This document shows positions 38,166 through 53,292 of a stretch of 53,292 nucleotides of DNA, in pieces. Source of the stretch: Chloroflexota bacterium (lineage in GTDB: Bacteria > Chloroflexota > Dehalococcoidia > SM23-28-2 > RBG-16-64-32); the NCBI GenBank assembly GCA_005882715.1, contig VBEI01000002.1, positions 1 to 53,292 of the forward strand. Direction: 5' to 3'. The translations under genes were made by a program, and so were the position numbers. The notes beneath the pieces were generated by a model. The model did not search any database. It had not been told where the DNA came from and worked only from the letters and a program-made list of their open reading frames with translations. The stretch's first letter is position 1; every line of letters begins with the position of its first letter.

Positions 38166-39737
38166 ATGTTAAACTGCATGAGCCCCATTCTTCAACTCCA
38201 CCGACAACTGTCGAATGGTCTTGACGTCGTTCGGCGAAGCAGTGAGGGATGTTTGCGTCTGTCGTCTCTAACGACAAAGACAAACCTGCGCTGGGCATGC
38301 GCGTCTGCGGCTGTGTCGGCAGTCCTAATATTCGCAGCCAGCGGACAGAGCGGGGGCACACGGCCGCAGAACCTGAGCGCCGCGTCTCTGAAAACCGCTG
38401 ACCCCACACCGAGACCGACGGCGAAGCCAACGCCCGCACCGACGGCGGCGCCCACACCGGCGCCAACGCCCGCTCCAACTCCCGAACCGCCACCGCCACC
38501 CCCGCCTATAGCGCCCGAGCCGGAGCCGGTCGCGGCGTCCGGGCCGGCGCCACTCCCGGGCACGGGGCCGAACTACTACGTCGACGATGTCAACGGGAAC
38601 GATGGCAACGGCGGCACCAGCGAGTCGGCCGCGTGGCGCAGCCTGGATCGCGCCAGCGACTTCACGATTCCCCCCGGCGCACGCCTGCTGTTCCGCCGAG
38701 GCGGAGCGTGGGCCGGGACGCTGAAGATCGAGGAGAGCGGTGCCGGAGGCCTCCCGGTGGTGATCGGGTCCTACGGCAGCGGCCCTCTTCCGGTGATCCA
38801 GGGCGCGAACGACTGCATCGCGCTCTTCGGCTCCGGAATCATCGTCGCGCAAATGCAGATGCAGGACTGCTGGTCGGGGGTCAGGATTCCAGCTGGGGCT
38901 TCGTCGAACCGCGTGCAGGACAGCGTGCTCGCGGGAAACGTCGCGGGCGTGCTGGTCAGCGAGGGCGCCTCCGACAACGCGATCATCGGTAACACATTCC
39001 AGAACAACAACAAGATGTCCGTGAATACACCGGGCGGATACGACGACTCGGGGGCGTTTGGCGTTCTGCTGAACGGCGACCGCAATGAGGTCGCGTATAA
39101 CCAGATCTCCGGGAGCGACGCCTTCTCCTACGACTACGGGCGGGACGGCGCAGCCGTCGAGATCTACAAGGGCCAGGGCAACAGCATCCACCACAATACG
39201 GCGGTCGATAACCATGCGTTCAGCGAGCTCGGCGACCCACGCACTCAGGACAACACGTTTGCGTACAATCTAGTGCAATCGTCTCTGCCCGACTCGACGT
39301 TCCTGGTGACCAGAGGCGGCCAAGACGGGCATGGGCCGGTGGTGAACACGAGGCTCTTCAACAACACCGTCGTCATGACGGGGCCGGGCAGCCAGGGCTT
39401 CGTCTGCCACGGTGGGTGCAACGGCGGCGTGCTCACGATGAGGAACAACGTCATCCAGGCCGTACAGAAGGCTGGGTATGCCGACGGCGCCTTCGACGAG
39501 GACTATGACTTCTACGCCGGCGGCATAACACAGTTCCCGCTCGGGCCCCACAGTGCGGTCGGCAACCCGATGTTCAACGACCCGTCAGGGGGCGACTTTC
39601 ATCTTGCCGGTGGCAGCCCGGCCGTCGACAGCGGTATCGACACGGGATACAGCGCAGATCTCGAAGGCCGGAGTGTGCCACGGGACGGAAACGGAGATGG
39701 GTTTGCCGTTGCGGACAGAGGCGCCTTCGAGCGCTAG
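38166..39737 (+). CDS. Secreted right-handed parallel beta-helix repeat protein with a Pro/Thr/Ala linker
   Basis: Signal-like LRWACASAAVSAVLIFAASG, then a PTPAPTAAPTPAPTPAPTPEPPPPPPP linker and beta-helix repeats. C-terminus DPMFNDPSGGDFHLAGGSPAVDSG..DRGAFE. The likely true start is TTG at 38253, after GAGGGA. Confidence 0.75.
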   Translation: MLNCMSPILQLHRQLSNGLDVVRRSSEGCLRLSSLTTKTNLRWACASAAVSAVLIFAASGQSGGTRPQNLSAASLKTADPTPRPTAKPTPAPTAAPTPAPTPAPTPEPPPPPPPIAPEPEPVAASGPAPLPGTGPNYYVDDVNGNDGNGGTSESAAWRSLDRASDFTIPPGARLLFRRGGAWAGTLKIEESGAGGLPVVIGSYGSGPLPVIQGANDCIALFGSGIIVAQMQMQDCWSGVRIPAGASSNRVQDSVLAGNVAGVLVSEGASDNAIIGNTFQNNNKMSVNTPGGYDDSGAFGVLLNGDRNEVAYNQISGSDAFSYDYGRDGAAVEIYKGQGNSIHHNTAVDNHAFSELGDPRTQDNTFAYNLVQSSLPDSTFLVTRGGQDGHGPVVNTRLFNNTVVMTGPGSQGFVCHGGCNGGVLTMRNNVIQAVQKAGYADGAFDEDYDFYAGGITQFPLGPHSAVGNPMFNDPSGGDFHLAGGSPAVDSGIDTGYSADLEGRSVPRDGNGDGFAVADRGAFER

Positions 39738-43694: not shown

Positions 43695-44327
43695 GTGACA
43701 ACGCGGGACGAACAAATGCGGCATCAATTGGTCTCCCCGGCTGGGGTCTATCCTCCGGCTCGAATGGAGGGCATTGCTGAAGAAGAACTCGCTCGACTGC
43801 TGAAAGAGCGTTCAATAGCGGCCTGGGAATTCTTGTTCGAGCGGCATTTCGATCGGGTCTATCGGTATGCCCTTGGCCGCTTATTCTGCCGAGAAGCAGC
43901 TGAGGACGTTGCTGCTGCAACTTTTGACCGGGCATTGGCCCTGATAGACGGCTACTCATACCGCGGGCGGCCCGCACTCGCCTGGCTCTACGGAATCGCG
44001 CGTAATGTCGTGAAGGAATCGCGGCGCAATGACGTTCGCCAGCAAGGCGCGGGACTGCTCAGGGGGTTGCATCCCCATCGTAACGGTCACCGCACAGACC
44101 ACGTGATCCCGCTGAACCATATGGATAGCGCTGACGCCGCCGTATCCCGGATCGACCTGACTCGTGCGATTGCCAGGCTTACGGAGATCCAGCGTGAAGT
44201 GGTGCTTCTCCGATACTTCGCCGGCCTTTCGGCAAGTGAGACCGGCCGCGTAATCGACCGCCCCGAGACGGCTGTCTACGCGCTGCAGGCGCGCGCGCTG
44301 GCGGCGCTGCGGCGGCAACTCACCTAA
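43695..44327 (+). CDS. ECF-type RNA polymerase sigma-70 family factor
   Basis: Region 2 is FERHFDRVYRYALGRL..WLYGIARNVV. Region 4 is LTEIQREVVLLRYFAGLSASETGRVIDRPETAVYALQARAL. Confidence 0.85.
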   Translation: MTTRDEQMRHQLVSPAGVYPPARMEGIAEEELARLLKERSIAAWEFLFERHFDRVYRYALGRLFCREAAEDVAAATFDRALALIDGYSYRGRPALAWLYGIARNVVKESRRNDVRQQGAGLLRGLHPHRNGHRTDHVIPLNHMDSADAAVSRIDLTRAIARLTEIQREVVLLRYFAGLSASETGRVIDRPETAVYALQARALAALRRQLT

Positions 44328-44368: not shown

Positions 44369-45442
44369 TTGTCGCGCGGTCATAAGCCATCGAATCGCCC
44401 AGAGGGAGACAGCCAACTGAACGCCCAGCAGCGCGACATCCTTATTGCCTGCCTTCGACGAGTCGAGCAAGGAGACCGCCTCGACTCGGTCCTCCGCGCC
44501 TACCCGAAGGAAACGCGCTGGCTACGAGAGCATATAGCGATTTCAAGGGCGCTCTATATCGTGGGCGAATCGTCTCCCATCAACAAAGAGCGGGCACGCG
44601 AACGCATCTTGAGTACCGTCGCTCATTCAACGGCCCCTTCTGCCATTTCAAGCCGCCGTCAATTTATCTTCGCCGTCGCGCAGGCCGCGTTGATAACGGT
44701 CGGCGTTCTGGTCCTGATGGTGGGTGCAGCCGCCGCGGCTGGCGTCGACCTTAGCTCAGTTCCGAGACATGTTGTTGACACTCTGGCCGAGCCGCTGCCG
44801 CTATCAGCCCAGAGCCTAGAGAACTCGGGCGCGCGTAAGCCGGGAGAGGGAGAGCCTCGCGCCGCTTCTGGCGGTAGCGATCGCGAGGTTGCTCGGTCGG
44901 CTGGGGGACCCGCCATCGAGGGCGATCTTTCAACCCTTACGAGTACCGGCTCTCGTGAGGTCGATCCCAATGATACTAACTCGCTGGCGCAAGGCGGTCA
45001 GCCCAGCCGGACGAATCCACCTGCCAGCGACACACCCGACGGCAACTCGCCTGGTAACGGCGGCCATCCCGGGGGCGAAAACCAAGAGGGCAACCATGGC
45101 AATCAGCCGGGCACGACTGGCCCACGAGATCAAAACCCGAGCCATAGTGGCCAACCCGGCAGCGACGGACACAACGATTCCAACTGCCCCGGCAATCAAG
45201 GAGTTAGCAATCAGCAGGGCCAAACCGACTCGAATGGCAACGGGTCGAACGGCGATAAGCCGAACGGCTCGAGTGGCGACGCATCGAATGGCTCGAACGG
45301 CGGTGGGTCGAACGGCGGTGGGCCGACGCTCTCGACGGGCGACGCACCGAATGGCTCGAACGGCGGCGCGTCGAGCGGCGCGAATAGCAACGCGGCGAAT
45401 GAGGCGTCCACCGACCATTCACTCATATTCACTCTCTATTAA
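44369..45442 (+). CDS. Putative anti-sigma factor: single TM, with a long G/N/S/P/D-rich low-complexity C-terminal region
   Basis: Lies directly downstream of the ECF sigma gene. TM is FIFAVAQAALITVGVLVLMVGAAAAAG. The start codon is uncertain. Confidence 0.55.
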   Translation: MSRGHKPSNRPEGDSQLNAQQRDILIACLRRVEQGDRLDSVLRAYPKETRWLREHIAISRALYIVGESSPINKERARERILSTVAHSTAPSAISSRRQFIFAVAQAALITVGVLVLMVGAAAAAGVDLSSVPRHVVDTLAEPLPLSAQSLENSGARKPGEGEPRAASGGSDREVARSAGGPAIEGDLSTLTSTGSREVDPNDTNSLAQGGQPSRTNPPASDTPDGNSPGNGGHPGGENQEGNHGNQPGTTGPRDQNPSHSGQPGSDGHNDSNCPGNQGVSNQQGQTDSNGNGSNGDKPNGSSGDASNGSNGGGSNGGGPTLSTGDAPNGSNGGASSGANSNAANEASTDHSLIFTLY

Positions 45443-45649
45443 CGGAAAGACGCCGTGATCCGAATTAGGCTGCTAACAACAAAGGTTTAGATCCGGTAAA
45501 GGAGTTGGGATGAATTCGGTCGGTGCCACTTGTGCGGAAACGGACAAACAAGGCTCGAACGAGGGTGCGCCGAACGATCAGAACAGCGGCGTACCGCGTG
45601 GGTTGAAACCGAGCCACGGCGGCCCAGCTGGAACAGGCGGGACGAAGTA

Positions 45650-47083
45650 GTGGCACAGCTCGCGGTAGTCGGCGCCGGCTACGTCGGTCTAGTCACCGCC
45701 GCCTGTCTCGCCAAGTTAGGTCATCGGGTGATCTGCGTCGAGGTAGATGAGAGCAGGCTCAATGGACTTGCGGCCGGTGAGCCGCCGATCAGCGAGCCCG
45801 GCCTGGCTGAGCTCGTCCGGGAACAACTGCGGCACGGGAGCCTCCGGTTCACGGGCGACTATGCGGGCGTAGCCGAGAGCGAATTCATCTTTATCGCTGT
45901 CCCCACTCCATCACGAGAGGATGGTTCGGCGGACACTAGCCACGTCCTCCATGCCGTCAACTCACTTATCCCTCATGTCCGGCCGGCGACGGTAATCGTC
46001 GTCAAAAGCACCGTGCCCGTTGGCACAACCGACAGGCTCGCCGCGATGCCGCCACTGTTGGAGGCGCGGATTGAGGTCGTATCGAACCCCGAGTTCCTGA
46101 GGCAAGGAACTGCGGTCCATGATTTCCTGCAGCCAGACCGTGTCGTCATCGGTGCCTCGTCGCCAGATGCGGCCGCGCGTGTGGCGCGCCTCTACTCGTC
46201 AATCGAGGCACCGATTGTTGCCGTGGATACACGCTCAGCGGAACTCGCCAAGTACACGGCAAATGCCCTGCTCGCCGCTCGAGTTTCGTTCATGAACGAG
46301 ATCTCACACATCGCCGCGGCGGTAGACGCTAATGTGGACGACGTCGCGCGGATAGTCGGCATGGACAGGCGCATCGGCCCCGCCTTTCTTAGGGCGGGCC
46401 TGGGCTGGGGTGGATCATGCTTTCCAAAGGACGTGCTCGCCCTGGCTGCGGTCGCTAATAGCAATGGCTGCCGAACTCCGATCTTGCAGGCCGTGTACGA
46501 GACTAACGAGCTACAGCGCGAGCACGCGGCCAAGCTTCTGCTTGATGCTGTGCGCACCATCCCGGGTCCGATCGTGGCGATATTAGGGCTCGCCTTCAAA
46601 CCAAATACCGATGATGTGCGAGGCTCGCCGGCGCTTGGCATTGCCCAGCATCTGCTGGCAGAAGGCGTCATCGTGCGCGCACACGACCCTTTCGCCCTTG
46701 TGAACGCCAGCCGTGTGCTTCCCGATGTGGAGTACAGCGAGGACGCCTATTCGGCGCTTGACGGGGCTGATGCCATCCTCCTCGCCACTGAGTGGGAGGA
46801 ATATTACGACCTGGACTGGATTCTTGTTAGAGAATCGATGCGCGGGAAGACAGTTGTCGATGGGAGGAACGCGCTGAACGGGGTACTCCTTACTGATCTT
46901 GGGTTCCGCTACTGGTCATTCGGACGGGCAACGCAGTCCAACGGAAACGGTACGGGGCCGCATGAGGGCCCCATGGACTCATCGCCCTTAGGTGGGGCAA
47001 CACATACCAACGGGAACGGTGCGGTGCCGCGCGAGGACGGCTTCGCTTCAGCTCTCGATTTTCGGGGAGCGGTTGCGGAATGA
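45650..47083 (+). CDS. ugd: UDP-glucose 6-dehydrogenase with a repeat-containing C-terminal tail
   Basis: GTG at 45650 gives VAQLAVVGAGYVGLVTAACLA (Rossmann). GGSCFPKD is the catalytic Cys motif. LGLAFKPNTDDVR is also present. Confidence 0.88.
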   Translation: MAQLAVVGAGYVGLVTAACLAKLGHRVICVEVDESRLNGLAAGEPPISEPGLAELVREQLRHGSLRFTGDYAGVAESEFIFIAVPTPSREDGSADTSHVLHAVNSLIPHVRPATVIVVKSTVPVGTTDRLAAMPPLLEARIEVVSNPEFLRQGTAVHDFLQPDRVVIGASSPDAAARVARLYSSIEAPIVAVDTRSAELAKYTANALLAARVSFMNEISHIAAAVDANVDDVARIVGMDRRIGPAFLRAGLGWGGSCFPKDVLALAAVANSNGCRTPILQAVYETNELQREHAAKLLLDAVRTIPGPIVAILGLAFKPNTDDVRGSPALGIAQHLLAEGVIVRAHDPFALVNASRVLPDVEYSEDAYSALDGADAILLATEWEEYYDLDWILVRESMRGKTVVDGRNALNGVLLTDLGFRYWSFGRATQSNGNGTGPHEGPMDSSPLGGATHTNGNGAVPREDGFASALDFRGAVAE

Positions 47084-49581
47084 CCATCAAGGCAGCGCTC
47101 CGGCGAGACCGCAGTACCGGACGGGCGACGAGGGTGAAGGCCCAAGGCAAGTTCCTGTTCGCAAACGGTAAGAAGCTGTACCTCCGCGGTGTCACTTATG
47201 GGACGTTTCGCCCCCAACCTGACGGCACGATGTTCCCACCGCCGGAAGTTGTTGAAGCAGATTTCCGGGGCATGATCGAGGCACGCGTCAACTCTATCCG
47301 CACGTATACCGTTCCTCCAGCCTGGCTGCTGGATCTAGCGGTATCGTTCGGACTATATGTTCTCGTTGGCATTCCATGGGAGCAGCACGTCCGGTTTTTG
47401 GACGACCGCAAGACGCGAAAGGGGATCGAGCGCACCATCCGGGATGCCGTGGATAGCTGCGGCGCCCATCCCGCCGTTCTTGCCTACCTCGTCGGCAACG
47501 AGATTCCAGCACCGATCGTACGCTGGCATGGCCGGCGCCGGATCGAAGCATGGCTAAGGCGTCTATACCAGGTCGCCAAGCGTGAGGACCCCGGTGCGTT
47601 GGTGGCATACGTGAACTATCCGACCACGGAATACCTCGATCTGTCCTTCACGGACTTCGTGTGCTTCAACGTTTATCTGGAGACGCCAGAACGACTCCAG
47701 GCATATCTTGCTCGCCTCCAGAACCTGGCCGGCGAGAAGCCGCTCGTAATGACGGAAATCGGGCTTGACAGCCGGCGGAACGGGCTCGAGCGGCAGGCGG
47801 AGGTGCTTGAGTGGCAGATCCGCGAGGTCTTTGCGGAAGGCTGTGCGGGTGTGTTCGTCTTCGCCTGGACCGACGAGTGGCACCGGGGCGGTTACGACAT
47901 CGAGGACTGGGACTTCGGGCTGATGAATCGAGACCGTAACGCGAAACCGGCCCTCGCCGCCGTTGCTGGCGCCTTTGCGGAGGTGCCGTTCCCGGCTATG
48001 CGTCTCTGGCCACGCGTGTCAGTCGTCGTCTGTAGCTACAACGGTGCGCGGACTATCGGCGATACGTTCGAGGCCCTGCAACATGTCGAATATCCGAACT
48101 TTGAGGTGATCCTTGTCGACGACGGTTCGAAGGACGCGACCGCCGCGATCGGCCTAGAGTTCGGCGTCAGAGTGATCAGCACGGAGAACCGCGGTCTGAG
48201 CAACGCCCGCAATACCGGTTACGAGGCGGCGACCGGCGAAATCGTCGCGTACGTCGACGACGACGCCTACCCGGAGGTCCATTGGCTCCATTACCTCGCC
48301 CATCGTTTCATGCAGCGCGATTGGGCTGGGGTGGGAGGGCCGAACCTACCCCCAGCGGGCGACGGGATGATCGCGGAGTGCGTCGCGAACTCACCGGGCG
48401 GCCCGGTGCACGTCCTAGTGTCTGACATCGAGGCAGAACACATTCCCGGCTGCAATATGGCCTTTCGCAAAGCTGCGCTCGAGGGCACCGGCGGATTTGA
48501 TCCGCGTTTTCGGACCGCGGGCGACGATGTGGATATCTGTTGGCGGCTGTTGAATTCGGGAGCCCACATCGGATTTCACGCCGGTGCGATGGTCTGGCAC
48601 CACCGCCGCAACTCTGTGCGCACGTACTGGAAACAGCAGCGCGGTTACGGCCGGGCGGAAGCACTGCTCGAGCGAAAGTGGCCCGAGAGATACAACGCAC
48701 CGGGACACCTCTCGTGGGCCGGACGCCTGTACGGCCGGGGACTGACGACGGCGCTTACGCGGGCGCCGGGACGCATCTATCAGGGGCACGCGGGTAGCGC
48801 CCTCTTTCAGTCGGTTTACCAGCCGGCGCCTGGGACGCTCGCGTCGCTTCCACAAATGCCGGAATGGTACATGGCGGTCCTCGGGCTGGCAGCCATAACC
48901 GCGCTCGGAGCGATCTGGCTGCCGCTGTTGGCCGCGGGCCCGCTTCTTCTGATCGCATTAGGGGCGCCATTAGGGCAAGCGTCGTTGGACGCGGCCCGAG
49001 CCACGTTCTCCGAGCGGCGAGGAGTTCGCGCGTGGCCGCGGCACCTCCTCACCGGGCTACTCCGCGTGATGCAGCCGATCGCCCGCCTATCCGGACGCAT
49101 CGAGTATGGCTTGACGCCATGGAGACGCAGGGGTCGCGGCCTGGCGTTACCGTTCGCCATCACCGAGAGCGCCTGGCGCGAGGAGTGGCAGTCGATTGAA
49201 GCGCGGACGCAAACGCTAGCCAGCGCTTTGAAGCAACAAGAAGCCGCGTGGCGACCGGGTGGCGACTTCGATGCCTGGGACTTCGAGGTGCGCGGCGGGA
49301 TGCTGTCGTCGGCGCGACTGCTATCGAGTGTCGAAGAACATGGGGGCGGCCGCCAATTAGTGCTGTTCCGAGCCTGGCCCGAGATTTCGAACTTTGCGCT
49401 CGGCCTTATCGGCGCGACTAGCGGGCTTGCGCTCGCGGCAGGCTTCGACGGTGCCTGGGCTGCGGCGGCCGTGCTCGCGCTGATCGCCGGTGCGATAACT
49501 CTGCGCAGCATCTGGGAAGCGGCGCTAGCGATGGGTGCGGTCAAAGTCACCATCGCGGAGTACCAGGAAGCCGCGCAATGA
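47080..49581 (+). CDS. Fusion protein: clan GH-A-like TIM-barrel glycosidase domain, family-2 glycosyltransferase, and C-terminal membrane helices
   Basis: N-terminus YLRGVTYG..LVGNEIP..VMTEIG. GT2 is VSVVVCSYNG..ILVDDGS..VDDDAYP..GCNMAFRK. C-terminal hydrophobic segments. ATGA overlap with ugd. Confidence 0.8.
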   Translation: MTIKAALRRDRSTGRATRVKAQGKFLFANGKKLYLRGVTYGTFRPQPDGTMFPPPEVVEADFRGMIEARVNSIRTYTVPPAWLLDLAVSFGLYVLVGIPWEQHVRFLDDRKTRKGIERTIRDAVDSCGAHPAVLAYLVGNEIPAPIVRWHGRRRIEAWLRRLYQVAKREDPGALVAYVNYPTTEYLDLSFTDFVCFNVYLETPERLQAYLARLQNLAGEKPLVMTEIGLDSRRNGLERQAEVLEWQIREVFAEGCAGVFVFAWTDEWHRGGYDIEDWDFGLMNRDRNAKPALAAVAGAFAEVPFPAMRLWPRVSVVVCSYNGARTIGDTFEALQHVEYPNFEVILVDDGSKDATAAIGLEFGVRVISTENRGLSNARNTGYEAATGEIVAYVDDDAYPEVHWLHYLAHRFMQRDWAGVGGPNLPPAGDGMIAECVANSPGGPVHVLVSDIEAEHIPGCNMAFRKAALEGTGGFDPRFRTAGDDVDICWRLLNSGAHIGFHAGAMVWHHRRNSVRTYWKQQRGYGRAEALLERKWPERYNAPGHLSWAGRLYGRGLTTALTRAPGRIYQGHAGSALFQSVYQPAPGTLASLPQMPEWYMAVLGLAAITALGAIWLPLLAAGPLLLIALGAPLGQASLDAARATFSERRGVRAWPRHLLTGLLRVMQPIARLSGRIEYGLTPWRRRGRGLALPFAITESAWREEWQSIEARTQTLASALKQQEAAWRPGGDFDAWDFEVRGGMLSSARLLSSVEEHGGGRQLVLFRAWPEISNFALGLIGATSGLALAAGFDGAWAAAAVLALIAGAITLRSIWEAALAMGAVKVTIAEYQEAAQ

Positions 49582-52337
49582 GACTCATCCCGCGCGGCGG
49601 CGACATTGGACTGATGTTCCGCGTAATGCTGCTCGCGCGCTCATACTGGGCGCTCATTCTGCTCTTTTTCATCGTTAGCATGCTCGCGACGCCGCTGACG
49701 CTGCTCGCACCGATCCCGCTGAAGATTGTGGCCGACGTTCTCGTACAGAAGCAGGCCCTCCCCGGCTTTCTCTCGCCCCTCGTTCCGGACGCGATCAACT
49801 CGTCCGAGACGCGGCTTATTGCGTTCGCCGCGGTATTGTTCGTGCTCGTGGCGTTCCTGCGTCAGACGCAGGACCTTGCTCGCACACTTCTAGACACATA
49901 CATAGGTGAGCGCCTCACTCTGAGGTTTCGCTCCCAACTCTTTTCTCAGGTCCAGCGTATGTCGCTGGCCTATCACGACAGCCAGGGAACGGCCGACTCG
50001 GTATACCGGATCCAGTGGGACGCCATGGCCATCCAGGACCTGGCCATCGACGGTATGATTCCCTTTCTGTCCGCGTCATTCACGCTTGTGTCGATGATCT
50101 ACGTGGTTCTGGCGATCGACTGGCAGCTCGGCGTCGCCGCCCTCGCCGCCGGCCCGGTGCTCCTCGTCCTGACCAGGGTGTACCAAACCAGGCTCCGTCA
50201 GCGCGCTCGGACTGTGAAGCGCCTGGAAAGCTCGGCGATGGGTGTGATCCAGGAAGTCCTTGGGGCGCTCCGCGTGGTCAAGGCCTTCGGGCAGGAGGGA
50301 CGCGAGGAGGAGCGCTTCTACGGGCGCGCAGAGGACGGAGTCCAGGCACGGGTCGGCCTTTCGGCGATGGAGGGCTTCTTCGGTCTCTTGATCGGCTTAA
50401 CAACCGCCGCCGTTACCGCGGTCGTGCTCTACATCGGGGCCCTGCACGTGCAGTCGGGGAAGCTGACGCTCGGCGAGCTGCTGCTCGTGATGGGCTATCT
50501 CACCCAGCTATACGATCCGCTAAGAAGTGCGAGCAAACGAATCGGCAAGATGCAGTCTTCGCTTGCGAGCGCCGAGCGCGCGTTTCAATTACTCGACCAA
50601 GCGCCAGATGTGGAAGAGCGAGTGGACGCGCAGCCGCTCGAGCGAGCTAATGGAGATATCAGGTTTGAAGAAGTTTCGTTCGGCTACGACACAAGCGCAC
50701 CCGTCCTCAGTGAGGTCTCGTTGGAGCTACGGCCAGGAGAGCGGATCGGCGTCTACGGCGTGACCGGCGCCGGGAAGACTACGCTGATCAGCCTACTCAC
50801 CCGTCTTTATGATCCCAATGAAGGCGGAATCCTGCTCGACGGCGTCGATATCCGAGACTACAGGGTTGCTGACTTGCGGAAGCAATTCGCTGTCGTCCTG
50901 CAGGAGCCGGTCCTGTTCTCGACGACGATTGCTGAGAACATCGCCTACGCCTGCCCTGGCGCAACATTCGAAGAGTTGGTGACCGCCGCCAAGGCGGCCG
51001 ACGCTCACGACTTCATTACGGCGCTCCCAGACGGCTACGACACCGTCGTTGGCGAGCGCGGAATGCGGCTCTCCGGGGGCGAACGCCAGCGTGTGGCTCT
51101 GGCCCGCGCCTTTCTGAAGGACGCCCCAATCCTCGTTCTGGACGAACCGACAAGCTCGGTTGACCACCAGACGGAGGCGACGATTATAGCCGCGATGGAG
51201 CGGTTGATGGCGGGCAGAACGACGATCATGATTGCCCACCGCTTAACCACACTAGGCAACTGTGACCGCTGGCTGGAGCTGCTCCCGGGCGGCAAAACAA
51301 GAGCAACTTGCAAACCTCCGTCCGGGGTGCGACGGCACGCCGCGCGACGTTCGGCCGCACGCGAGGCCCGTCACCCCGCAGCACGAGCCTGGGCTCAGAT
51401 CGGCGAGGGCCTATCGAATCCGCGGGCAGTGACTCAGGTCGAACCACCCGAGGTTGGCTTCCCCAAATCCACAATCTATCGGCTGGAGGGAGCCGGGGAG
51501 TGCGGCGCCACCGTCATTGCGAAGAAATGCAGGCGGCAACGCGGGCAGATAGAACGAACGATCTACGAGCTCGTCCTTCCCAAACTGTCACTGCCTTACC
51601 CGCGCTTTCTTGGCATGGCCAACGACGACGACGGGTCATGCTGGCTGTTCCTGGAGGATGCTGGTGACGAGGCGTATTCGCCACTTGACCCTAAGCACCG
51701 GGTCGTCGCTGGCCACTGGCTCGGCGCCTTGCATTCGTCGACCACATCGCTGCCATCTGATGTACCGCTACCCGATCGTGGTCCAGCGTACTATTTGGGA
51801 CATCTAACGGCGGCAAGGGACTTGATCCGCGCGAACCTAGATAATCCGGCACTGGGCAAGGATCAGCGCTGCCAACTCCAGAGGATCATTATGAATTGCG
51901 ATTTCATTGAGTCCGAGTGGTGGCGCCTCGAGCAATTCTGCCAGCCCATACCAACGACTCTGGTGCACGGCGACTTCATCGGAAAGAATGTGCGCATGAG
52001 AAGTGGGGCGACGAGCTTCGAAATTCTGCCGTTCGACTGGGAGCATGCGGGCATTGGCGTCCCAGCGGTCGATTTAGCGCAGGCGAGATACTCGTCAACG
52101 ACCTTTCTTGCGAATCCTGACCTCTCTGAGTATTGGATGACCACCGAATGGACCAAGCTCGGATATGAGACGGTTCTGCAGCTGGCCACGTACGGGACGA
52201 TATTCCGCTGCCTCGCTGCCCTTCACTGGGAGTCACATAAGCTCGCTTCTGAATGGGTCGAGTGGCCCGTGAAGAACATGACCCTGTATGAGGCTGAGTT
52301 GGCAGAAGCGGTGTACGCCTCCGGCTGGAGTAATTGA
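49578..52337 (+). CDS. ABC exporter half-transporter (TMD-NBD) fused to a C-terminal APH/choline-kinase-like phosphotransferase domain
   Basis: GVTGAGKTT, LSGGERQRVALARA, ILVLDEPTS, IAHRL; then, from about aa 600, VIAKKCRR..ERTIYELVLP, LVHGDFIGKNV, FDWEHAG. A single 919-aa ORF. ATGA overlap upstream and TGATG overlap downstream. Confidence 0.8.
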   Translation: MRLIPRGGDIGLMFRVMLLARSYWALILLFFIVSMLATPLTLLAPIPLKIVADVLVQKQALPGFLSPLVPDAINSSETRLIAFAAVLFVLVAFLRQTQDLARTLLDTYIGERLTLRFRSQLFSQVQRMSLAYHDSQGTADSVYRIQWDAMAIQDLAIDGMIPFLSASFTLVSMIYVVLAIDWQLGVAALAAGPVLLVLTRVYQTRLRQRARTVKRLESSAMGVIQEVLGALRVVKAFGQEGREEERFYGRAEDGVQARVGLSAMEGFFGLLIGLTTAAVTAVVLYIGALHVQSGKLTLGELLLVMGYLTQLYDPLRSASKRIGKMQSSLASAERAFQLLDQAPDVEERVDAQPLERANGDIRFEEVSFGYDTSAPVLSEVSLELRPGERIGVYGVTGAGKTTLISLLTRLYDPNEGGILLDGVDIRDYRVADLRKQFAVVLQEPVLFSTTIAENIAYACPGATFEELVTAAKAADAHDFITALPDGYDTVVGERGMRLSGGERQRVALARAFLKDAPILVLDEPTSSVDHQTEATIIAAMERLMAGRTTIMIAHRLTTLGNCDRWLELLPGGKTRATCKPPSGVRRHAARRSAAREARHPAARAWAQIGEGLSNPRAVTQVEPPEVGFPKSTIYRLEGAGECGATVIAKKCRRQRGQIERTIYELVLPKLSLPYPRFLGMANDDDGSCWLFLEDAGDEAYSPLDPKHRVVAGHWLGALHSSTTSLPSDVPLPDRGPAYYLGHLTAARDLIRANLDNPALGKDQRCQLQRIIMNCDFIESEWWRLEQFCQPIPTTLVHGDFIGKNVRMRSGATSFEILPFDWEHAGIGVPAVDLAQARYSSTTFLANPDLSEYWMTTEWTKLGYETVLQLATYGTIFRCLAALHWESHKLASEWVEWPVKNMTLYEAELAEAVYASGWSN

Positions 52338-53292
52338 TGGCGGACCTCGTTGCCGGTGGTGCGGGCTTCGTCGGTTCGCACCTGTGCCAACGGCTGATCG
52401 ATGCCGGACGCACTGTGATCTGCGTCGACAACTTCCGCACCGGGCGCCGCGCCAACGTGGAGCATCTGCTCTCCTCGCCCCGCTTCGCCCTCCTCGAGCT
52501 GGACCTTATAGCAGGCGCACCCGCGGTCGAGGCCGAGCGGATTTACCATCTCGCCAGTCCCGCCAGCCCTCCCGGCTACACCCGCTTCCCAATAGAGACG
52601 CTGCGGGTAAACAGCGATGGTACCCGACACCTACTTGAACTCGCCGCACGCACAGACTCTCGCATTCTGTATGCCAGCACCTCTGAGGTCTACGGCGACC
52701 CACTGGAGCATCCCCAGCGCGAGGAGTACCGAGGAAATGTGAGCTCCACCGGCCCGCGCTCGATGTACGACGAGGCGAAGCGTTTCGGAGAGGCGCTGAC
52801 CATGGCCTATCGCAGGAGCCACTCGGTCGATGTGCGGATCGCCCGAATCTTCAATACCTATGGCCCGCACTCCGATGCGGACGATGGGCGCCTGGTCCCG
52901 AACTTTATCGTCCAGGCGCTGACCGGCCGGCCGATCACGGTCTACGGCGACGGCAAACAGACACGCTCGCTCTGTTTCGTCTCCGATCTGGTCGACGGGC
53001 TGATGCGGTTGATGGAAAGCGACGGAGCTTCCGGCGAGGTCATCAACCTGGGAAACCCGGATGAACACACTGTCCTCGAGTACGCCGAAATGACACGGCG
53101 GTTGGCGTGCTCGAACTCGGAAATAGTGTTCGGCGCCTACGCCGTCGGTGATGATCCGCAGCGGCGCTGTCCCGACATCACGAAGGCGCTCGAGCTGCTG
53201 GGCTGGGAGCCGACTATCGGTCTTGAGGAGGGTCTCTCGCAGACCATCGAGTACTTTCGGTCCGAAACCGCATTGCAAGAGTGCACAGCATG
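52337..53292 (+). CDS. uxs: UDP-glucuronate decarboxylase (UDP-xylose synthase), 3' end outside the window; not in the ORF track
   Basis: Hand translation gives MADLVAGGAGFVGSHLCQRL..ICVDNFRTG..YHLASPASP..STSEVYGDP..YDEAKR..ARIFNTYGP, open to the window end. Confidence 0.88.
   Translation, partial: MADLVAGGAGFVGSHLCQRLIDAGRTVICVDNFRTGRRANVEHLLSSPRFALLELDLIAGAPAVEAERIYHLASPASPPGYTRFPIETLRVNSDGTRHLLELAARTDSRILYASTSEVYGDPLEHPQREEYRGNVSSTGPRSMYDEAKRFGEALTMAYRRSHSVDVRIARIFNTYGPHSDADDGRLVPNFIVQALTGRPITVYGDGKQTRSLCFVSDLVDGLMRLMESDGASGEVINLGNPDEHTVLEYAEMTRRLACSNSEIVFGAYAVGDDPQRRCPDITKALELLGWEPTIGLEEGLSQTIEYFRSETALQECTA

Follow-up and report, generated by a model that had tools for sequence, protein, structure and literature searches.

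An ABCB-type exporter fused to an APH/choline-kinase-fold domain, within a synthase-exporter-kinase gene module of Chloroflexota and other mostly uncultured soil bacteria

The glycolipid that MsbA flips receives its phosphate in the cytoplasmic leaflet from the kinases LpxK, KdkA, and WaaP; LpxK is a P-loop kinase, WaaP and KdkA have protein-kinase-like folds, and msbA and lpxK share an operon in Escherichia coli. A GT2-type synthase, decoration of its product, and export by an ATP-binding cassette (ABC) transporter also come together in the production of Nod factors (NodC with NodIJ) and of cyclic beta-1,2-glucan (cyclic glucan synthase with NdvA/ChvA); the decorations in these systems are acylation, sulfation, and phosphoglycerol addition, and NodIJ is a type V transporter. 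We know of no modifying enzyme fused to the exporter in either of them. In the O9a system, WbdD caps the growing chain by phosphorylation and methylation of its end, and a carbohydrate-binding module (CBM) on Wzt recognizes the cap (PMC3482155). The gene analyzed here occupies positions 49578..52337 (+ strand) of a 53,292-nucleotide stretch of DNA from a Chloroflexota bacterium (assembly GCA_005882715.1, contig VBEI01000002.1; the whole stretch is called the window below). It is a single open reading frame (ORF) of 919 aa in the list of ORFs, with an ATG start and no internal stop, that joins an ABC exporter to a kinase-fold domain within a glycan operon.

An earlier reading made from the letters alone, the sequence-only reading, had described this ORF as an ABC exporter continuing into an APH-like kinase, and Pfam confirmed it: ABC_membrane, ABC_tran, and APH were all matched, each above its gathering score. 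The transmembrane domain (residues 28-315; 49659..50522, + strand) was recognized by ABC_membrane (E = 1.3e-35), by hydropathy, and by matches to solved structures. Pfam (ABC_tran, residues 377-526, E = 3.7e-33), motifs, and alignments to solved exporters place the nucleotide-binding domain (NBD) at residues ~355-572 (50640..51293, + strand), with a Walker A motif (GVTGAGKT, residue 394), a signature (LSGGERQ, residue 498), a Walker B motif with the catalytic Glu (ILVLDEPTS, residue 518), and an H-loop (IAHRL, residue 552). With six helices in its ABC_membrane domain and the NBD after it in the same polypeptide, the transporter half has a type IV, ABCB-like exporter fold, the best solved matches being ABCB1/ABCB4/ABCB19, Sav1866, TM287/288, and MsbA. 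Three-frame translation delimits an Arg/Ala/Pro-rich linker at residues ~573-596 (51294..51365, + strand), whose sequence, CKPPSGVRRHAARRSAAREAR, is rich in Arg and, at ~24 aa, agrees with the predicted length of about 25 aa. The kinase domain follows at residues 597-919 (51366..52334, + strand); it opens with HPAARAW, carries its ATP-binding Lys in IAKK, and has the catalytic loop HGDFIGKN at residue 797 (51966-51989) and the metal-binding motif DWEH at residue 820 (52035-52046), with the APH match (PF01636) covering residues 633-837 (E = 1.3e-10; 41.9 bits versus a gathering score of 23.2).

All ATPase and kinase motifs thus lie where the sequence-only reading had put them, but its description of the transporter part as complete stands only for the motif set. 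Alignments to the solved exporters (Sav1866, TM287/288, MsbA, and ABCB1) reach no further than query residues 563-569 and leave the last ~30 residues of the targets unmatched; the canonical C-terminal helix of the NBD was not encountered, and the linker lies in its place. Fused and separate members of the family alike have a low-complexity linker after ...GR(V/I)V.DT or LELLPGGKTR, and as judged from these sequences, the linker replaces the usual NBD C-terminal helix across the family.

The structure predicted by AlphaFold 2 (AF2) for residues 570-919 had a mean predicted local distance difference test score (pLDDT) of 86.7 and a predicted TM score (pTM) of 0.84, with the linker alone disordered. 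Foldseek returned 255 PDB matches for the kinase model at E <= 0.001, and the best 50 of these were all kinases of the APH/choline-kinase/YihE/YtaA/Mph/NahK/FN3K group, at 10-16% identity and TM scores of 0.4-0.65. The kinase fold, on which the sequence-only reading had staked its claim for the C-terminal domain, is thus well supported by the model and its matches. In a 15-sequence kinase alignment (A1), K80, a Glu, H228-G229-D230, N235, and D251-W252 are invariant. There are more than 100 full-length fused cluster representatives, 106 of which were checked for motifs: Walker A and Walker B-Glu are present in all (106/106 each), the signature in 105/106, the H-loop in 104/106, the kinase Lys in 99/106, HGDxxxxN in 102/106, and DW(E) in 100/106. 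Judging by motif retention, both the ATPase half and the kinase half are intact.

A profile search of 1.84 billion representatives collected 1,133 kinase clusters (50% identity) at E <= 1e-30, with an N-terminal HPAxxAW element as the hallmark of the family. By sequence, these kinases form a large, distinct, and unnamed family linked to an ABC exporter. Identity with an antibiotic resistance phosphotransferase (APH, Mph, or Cph) was rejected: the sole NCBIfam match of the kinase was capreomycin phosphotransferase, at 16.1 bits versus a cutoff of 390, and a sequence search of the PDB with the kinase domain gave one marginal match (7f0a, E = 0.3).

The junction recurs well beyond the window. A scaffold from another project (L002) has the same architecture in one 932-aa ORF, in a single frame, with 83% identity over residues 1-919, and a full-length search recovered at least 14 cluster representatives (P0121-P0134) of 908-924 aa with 73-99% identity, 100% coverage, and the three Pfam domains. 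The operon of the window is also present on two long contigs (L083 and L084), where the fused gene product has 924 aa. In P0121-P0133, 46 residues always separate the H-loop from the start of the kinase, the linker sequence varies, and one fused member has an in-frame 11-residue deletion, a combination that suggests a translated and selected linker. Both alternative frames are interrupted by stops across the junction, and, as the sequence-only reading had noted, no NBD tail or kinase start is to be found in them. That reading had named relatives with separated genes as its weak point, and here the relatives divide: many close ones are fused, whereas L004, L003, and P0140/143/144, equally close, have two separate genes. 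Two related contigs (L001 and L003; ENA ERZ25039531 and ERZ25039469) have frameshifts about every 100 codons in all operon genes and were used with care; their gene calls (for example, the "545-aa" P0005 and the "337-aa" P0016) are unreliable for fused or separate status. The error pattern of these contigs resembles that of uncorrected long-read assemblies. On this comparative sequence evidence, the fusion is genuine and evolutionarily maintained.

The closest genomes, both metagenome-assembled genomes (MAGs) of Chloroflexota, are an uncultured Dehalococcoidia (L004) and Chloroflexi CF_23 (L053), and the first of these shows how the fusion of the window lineage arose. In L004, the ABC protein ends with ...LELLPGGKTRVTSDPPSGAWRHAEEPAATPRSSQSHVGVKADA* and the kinase begins with MPDRHAGLYQLEVAQHPAARAW in the next frame, its ATG overlapping the ABC TGA in ATGCCTGA; many standalone kinases (335-339 aa, 60-73% identity) start with an N terminus similar to that of the L004 kinase. 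A DNA alignment (A3) showed that the window, L002, L001, and L083 lack an identical stretch of 70 nt that is present in L004 and L003 and contains the start/stop overlap ATGCCTGA; in the window, the deletion junction maps to ~51362|51363. Since 70 = 1 mod 3, a deletion of this length would drop both the stop and the start and put the kinase into the ABC frame. We read the alignment as the trace of one ancestral 70-nt deletion, kept through divergence to ~73% full-length identity (67-69% in the kinase domain). An insertion of 70 nt that created a perfectly overlapping stop and start was judged much less likely.

A scan of 185,579 species genomes with the kinase-domain alignment as the query yielded 79 loci, all but one of them in MAGs, chiefly from soil and groundwater, in Gemmatimonadota, Chloroflexota, Acidobacteriota, Rokubacteria, Eisenbacteria, Verrucomicrobiota, Planctomycetota, Myxococcota, Actinomycetota, and ANGP1. 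At 58 of the 64 loci with enough flanking sequence, the kinase is immediately preceded by an ABC exporter, and at 45 of 50 the exporter is in turn immediately preceded by a GH2-like/GT2 protein, the partner synthase described below. The NBD and kinase form one uninterrupted ORF at 46/69 informative loci from ~10 phyla. Fused and separate loci number 26 and 2 in Gemmatimonadota, 4 and 8 in Acidobacteriota, 6 and 6 in Chloroflexota excluding loci titled Dehalococcoidia, and 0 and 2 among loci so titled. At most separate loci the two genes are immediate neighbors, and ~30-60 nt lie between the ABC stop and the first aligned residue of the kinase; the kinase start is expected near this stop, a spacing suggestive of translational coupling. 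Both forms therefore turned up in the survey that the sequence-only reading had called for, and the occurrence of fused and adjacent-gene forms together makes a Rosetta-stone argument that kinase and exporter act together. The fusion is not a singular solution; it is a common architecture in soil MAGs of ~10 phyla. A first protein search had suggested that most relatives are standalone; this was rejected, as the full-length query and the genome scan show abundant fused forms, which the library, clustered at 50% identity, folds into few clusters.

In a neighbor-joining tree of 68 NBD-adjacent kinases, the window clade stands apart from a large fused clade. At least five changes between the fused and separate states are needed on this tree, and we infer at least five independent fusion or fission events from the sequences. 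The junction of the major fused type differs from that of the window, with ...GR(V/I)V.DT followed by 25-40 residues rich in Ala/Pro/Arg and then HPAVQAW. ABC-kinase-kinase triple fusions of 1,222-1,278 aa also occur (P0145 and P0151); in P0145, the catalytic loop of the second kinase domain is degenerate (HGDIAEDH). Two kinase domains also make up many proteins of 640-720 aa, and up to four tandem paralogous kinases follow the exporter in some lineages (L043, L078, L081, L085, and L086 are among the loci with extra kinases). In P0141 (1,251 aa, truncated by the contig end), the GT2 synthase is in frame with the ABC exporter (…YRKAAKMKLIPRGG…), a single example that is possibly another Rosetta-stone link or a sequencing error at the ATGA overlap. 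P0113 (587 aa), in which an ABC transmembrane domain runs straight into the kinase without an NBD, perhaps represents a decayed gene or a chimera made during assembly. At L053 (VBEJ01000074, 526-8896), the synthase, ABC transmembrane domain, and UXS are ~84% identical to those of the window, the NBD is 63% and the fused kinase 38% identical, and a second kinase follows; this pattern of identities suggests that recombination within the ABC gene swapped the NBD-kinase module.

The partner synthase of the window (833 aa; 47080..49581, + strand) was characterized with Pfam, motifs, hydropathy, AF2, and Foldseek. Its N-terminal domain is a clan GH-A TIM barrel with the motifs GNE at residue 140 and TEIG at residue 225, in which E141 and E226 are the predicted acid/base and nucleophile, and its structural matches are GH2 beta-glucuronidases and a GH157 endo-beta-1,3-glucanase (9FZ9 = GH157). 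The GT2 part matches Glyco_tranf_2_3 and Glyco_trans_2_3 in Pfam and has the motifs DDD (residue 393), GDDVD (residue 483), and QQRGYG (residue 519, Tyr replacing Trp); the GT2/transmembrane part found BcsA, with a very high root-mean-square deviation over multidomain alignments. Hydropathy and the AF2 model (pLDDT 80.4) give the C terminus only ~4 transmembrane helices, plausibly too few for a channel of its own, so that the synthase would need a separate exporter. That a synthase with ~4 helices is regularly followed by a type IV exporter fits synthesis in the cytoplasm and export by the ABC protein. The synthase is unusually well conserved, with ~60% identity between Chloroflexota, Gemmatimonadota, Acidobacteriota, and Tectomicrobia (alignment A2), and source records label its homologs just "glycosyltransferase." Intact-looking glycoside hydrolase motifs, in a cytoplasmic domain, stand beside GT2 motifs on one synthase; trimming, transglycosylation, and cyclization are candidate roles for the GH-like part.

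Taken over all loci, the sequences define an invariant core order of GH-A-like/GT2/4-helix synthase, ABC exporter, and kinase(s). In Gemmatimonadota, further genes come after this core: two additional APH-family kinases, a RimK/LysX-like ATP-grasp ligase, a YdjC (chitin-disaccharide-deacetylase-like) protein, conserved unknowns, and an outer-membrane beta-barrel. Clusters of Gemmatimonadota and Nocardioides (L085, 14693-15856; L086, 14848-16014; L064, 4757-5902) also encode a conserved protein of 381-388 aa without a Pfam or NCBIfam match, placed either between the extra kinases or behind them, which is probably a further component of the module. A cultured carrier of the unfused module is Nocardioides iriomotensis NBRC 105384 (L064).

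In the window, the fusion is the third of four translationally coupled genes, which overlap by ATGA, ATGA, and TGATG; the predicted glycan operon context is borne out by its flanking genes. The first gene, of the UDP-glucose/GDP-mannose dehydrogenase family (UGDH; 45530..47083, + strand), has three UDPG_MGDP_dh domains in Pfam; the stop of the second, the synthase gene, overlaps the fusion start (ATGA); and the fourth, a UXS-like NAD-dependent epimerase/decarboxylase gene (Pfam Epimerase/GDP_Man_Dehyd; motif VDNFRTGRRANV), begins within the fusion stop and continues to the window end (52337..53292, + strand). The UXS-like gene is syntenic in L001-L004 and L083. UGDH and UXS were rejected as core components of the module, being present at only 9/79 and 12/79 loci, respectively, and are lineage-specific accessories. 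The UGDH ORF, as listed, has 517 aa and a TTG start, with an N-terminal extension of ~40-60 residues that is missing from its 454-aa ortholog in L083; the true start is probably downstream of the TTG, near residue 40 (…VVAQLAVVGAGYVG).

Upstream from the operon, Pfam identified an ECF-type (extracytoplasmic function) sigma factor (43695-44327, + strand) and found no family match for a 357-aa protein (44369-45442, + strand). Both are syntenic upstream in L001, L003, L083, and L084 and are possible regulators of the operon in the window clade. The 357-aa protein was considered as a counterpart of the conserved 387-aa unknown of the Gemmatimonadota clusters, and comparison showed it to be unrelated to that protein and to the 381-388-aa group. 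Genes for ribosomal proteins L4 (41794-42732, - strand) and L3 (42729-43361, - strand) are divergent to the sigma factor gene and glycan operon, and L083 shows the same ribosomal-protein neighborhood, with an S10 gene. The L4 protein is unusually long at 312 aa, its Pfam domain spanning residues 17-202 only. A 523-aa protein with weak right-handed beta-helix/NosD matches, encoded a few kilobases upstream from the operon (38166-39737, + strand), might be a glycan-active enzyme. Scans for Rfam families, tRNAs, promoters, and terminators returned nothing informative.

As a structural statement, it is nearly certain that the fusion is a real, conserved bifunctional protein inside a three-part module. 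For its function, we lean, with some caution, toward a synthase-kinase-exporter module in which the kinase phosphorylates a glycan or glycolipid that has been made in the cytoplasm, either ahead of its export or in the course of it. At the inner membrane face, the GH-A-like synthase, with its processive-type GT2 domain, would assemble a glycolipid or an oligo- or polysaccharide, in the window lineage probably with UDP-GlcA- and UDP-Xyl-derived sugars supplied through the flanking UGDH and UXS-like genes. The NBD-tethered kinase, held on the cytoplasmic side by the flexible basic linker, would phosphorylate the synthase product, and the ABC exporter would then carry the phosphorylated product across the membrane. 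A homodimeric exporter would place two kinase domains at its cytoplasmic mouth in a fixed 1:1 ratio, so that modification and export could be spatially coupled. The coupling of phosphorylation to export is suggested by the gene association; the glycan as acceptor of the kinase, the order of the steps, and any need for phosphate in export are proposals. UGDH and UXS in the window, and extra kinases, the ATP-grasp ligase, the YdjC deacetylase, and the outer-membrane barrel elsewhere, indicate a glycan rather than a drug context.

Several points weigh against phosphorylation of an exported glycan. All members are known from sequence, and the fold does not give the acceptor of the kinase: Foldseek placed the domain equally near small-molecule kinases (choline/ethanolamine, APH, and Mph), the protein kinase YihE, and sugar kinases (NahK and FN3K), and equal nearness at such low identity does not give a substrate class. 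The GH-A-like domain of the synthase is left unexplained by the model; the absence of UGDH and UXS from most loci means that the sugar chemistry of the window is not general; and a Pfam scan of the operon found no lipid-carrier priming enzyme, so that the product might be lipid-linked, free, or a glycolipid. A bolder form of the proposal is a self-contained pathway, spread over at least 10 soil phyla that are mostly uncultured, for making and exporting an oligosaccharide or glycolipid that is (poly)phosphorylated; the tethered kinase would add a phosphate required as the export signal, and the one-polypeptide "cap-and-export" machine would have evolved repeatedly by fusion; we regard this as a tentative extension that is rather doubtful.

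The domain might instead be a regulatory protein kinase that phosphorylates itself, the transporter, or the synthase and thereby gates synthesis and export, for which Wzc, the tyrosine autokinase of Wzy-dependent pathways, and Ser/Thr kinases of the YihE/RdoA type offer parallels. YihE (1zyl) ranks near the top of the Foldseek matches and has the highest TM scores among them (0.61/0.65), a regulatory module would be well served by the Arg-rich linker and by a stoichiometry fixed to that of the NBD, and some source records name relatives "Ser/Thr protein kinase RdoA"; these names, however, are automatic. The linker is dominated by A, P, and R, and no conserved Ser/Thr/Tyr-rich acceptor segment was seen in it, and two to four paralogous kinases and tandem doubles are common per cluster, which is more typical of multisite decoration. 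We therefore consider this explanation improbable.

We give the same small chance to phosphorylation of a small molecule, either a substrate of the choline, ethanolamine, or aminopropanol type or a free sugar used for decoration, or a toxin inactivated by a kinase that forms a resistance pair with the pump. Among the top Foldseek matches are ethanolamine/choline kinases, APH(2''), macrolide phosphotransferases, and NahK, such weak matches as there are by sequence point to capreomycin phosphotransferase, and the ABC part is as similar to multidrug exporters as to lipid flippases. The near-universal linkage to the GH-A/GT2 synthase and the GT2-ABC fusion of P0141 are nevertheless unexpected for a resistance pair, curated resistance families score far below their cutoff (16 bits versus 390), and no cytidylyltransferase or LicD-type transferase for downstream activation or transfer was seen in the clusters inspected.

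Still less probable is a kinase-fold domain that chiefly binds or presents the glycan, as a Wzt CBM does, with catalysis secondary or lost. It would sit in the same place, C-terminal to the NBD, as the Wzt CBM of O9a (PMC3482155), and second kinases in triple fusions can be degenerate, as in P0145, but the Lys, HGDxxxxN, and DW(E) motifs of the fused kinases, kept in 99-102/106 and invariant in A1, speak for an active enzyme under selection. That an assembly or sequencing indel joined two separate genes in the window is virtually inconceivable: the equally close relatives with separate genes and the frameshift-ridden contigs L001 and L003 would speak for it, but the two states differ by 70 nt rather than by a 1-nt indel, different projects have yielded the junction in at least 14 independent assemblies, and neither other frame supplies an NBD tail or a kinase start.

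An NBD-kinase fusion that has been repeatedly made and kept is a Rosetta stone that would place both activities on one molecule or complex. The kinase family, with its ~1,100 clusters, and a synthase that is ~60% identical across phyla have been just generically annotated in abundant soil lineages, namely Gemmatimonadota, Chloroflexota, Acidobacteriota, and Rokubacteria. If phosphate is the license for export, the module would offer a compact model of how an exporter selects finished glycans. It would also point to a class of phosphorylated envelope or extracellular glycans with a possible part in soil aggregation and in tolerance of desiccation. The cultured N. iriomotensis strain, with its unfused module, makes experiments feasible.

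Among described systems, the O9a WbdD/Wzm-Wzt pathway, which the sequence-only reading had taken as its paradigm, resembles the module in that an enzyme with a eukaryotic-like kinase fold phosphorylates a glycan in the cytoplasm before ABC export and in that Wzt, like the fusion, has an extra domain C-terminal to the NBD (PMC3482155). The differences are greater: Wzm/Wzt is a two-polypeptide type V (ABC2) transporter, whereas the exporter here is of the ABCB-like type IV and consists of one chain; the domain added to the NBD is a CBM on Wzt and a kinase on the fusion; WbdD, a protein of its own, also has a methyltransferase domain and a coiled coil; and the O9a glycan is built on undecaprenyl pyrophosphate by soluble mannosyltransferases, in contrast to the one membrane GT2 synthase here. 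Pfam scans of the neighboring ORFs found no ABC2-type permease, phosphoglycosyl transferase, Wzm/Wzt-type transporter, or methyltransferase, and the fusion ORF itself has no methyltransferase domain in Pfam. Without the ABC2-type transporter, the CBM, and the methyltransferase, the analogy fails for every defining feature that could be tested.

Other comparisons are closer in part. MsbA with LpxK/KdkA/WaaP shares a type IV half-transporter and the linkage of kinase and exporter genes, but the ABC part scores 400.2 bits versus the TIGR02203 equivalog cutoff of 602, and 329.8 versus 867 for PRK11176, and no lipid A genes lie near the fusion; identity with MsbA proper was rejected on these scores. 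PglK, the lipid-linked oligosaccharide flippase of Campylobacter, is likewise a type IV half-transporter for a glycan-bearing substrate, but it has no C-terminal enzyme domain, and the NCBIfam PglK model gives 163.5 bits versus a cutoff of 1000. None of the NCBIfam identities considered for the ABC part (MsbA, cyanophycin-associated, HepA, glucan exporter, and PglK) reached its cutoff. The kinase shares its bilobal fold, HGDxxxxN, and metal-binding Asp with APH/choline-kinase-fold kinases and YihE/YtaA (2q83, 2qg7, 1zyl, 4n57, 8ixi, and 4wh2) but differs in forming a family of its own, marked by HPAxxAW and by obligate linkage to the ABC exporter.

The Nod factor and cyclic glucan systems, in which an oligosaccharide is made in the cytoplasm, share with the module a GT2-type synthase with few transmembrane helices and a separate ABC exporter. 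The cyclic glucan synthase, like the synthase of the window, also carries a glycoside-hydrolase-like domain, and the glucan exporter models were matched by the ABC part below their cutoffs (PRK13657, 351 bits; chvA, 297 bits); decoration in these systems, in contrast, involves no dedicated APH-fold kinase. A full-text search found no ABC-APH fusion or GH2/GT2-ABC-kinase cluster in the library of literature searched. The better analogy therefore appears to be a membrane GT2 synthase paired with a type IV exporter, with modification at the cytoplasmic face. To our knowledge, ABC-dependent glycan export and cytoplasmic glycan phosphorylation are known separately and not as one polypeptide; the module described here, uncharacterized and widespread, would join cytoplasmic glycan modification to ABC export on a single ABCB-type polypeptide.

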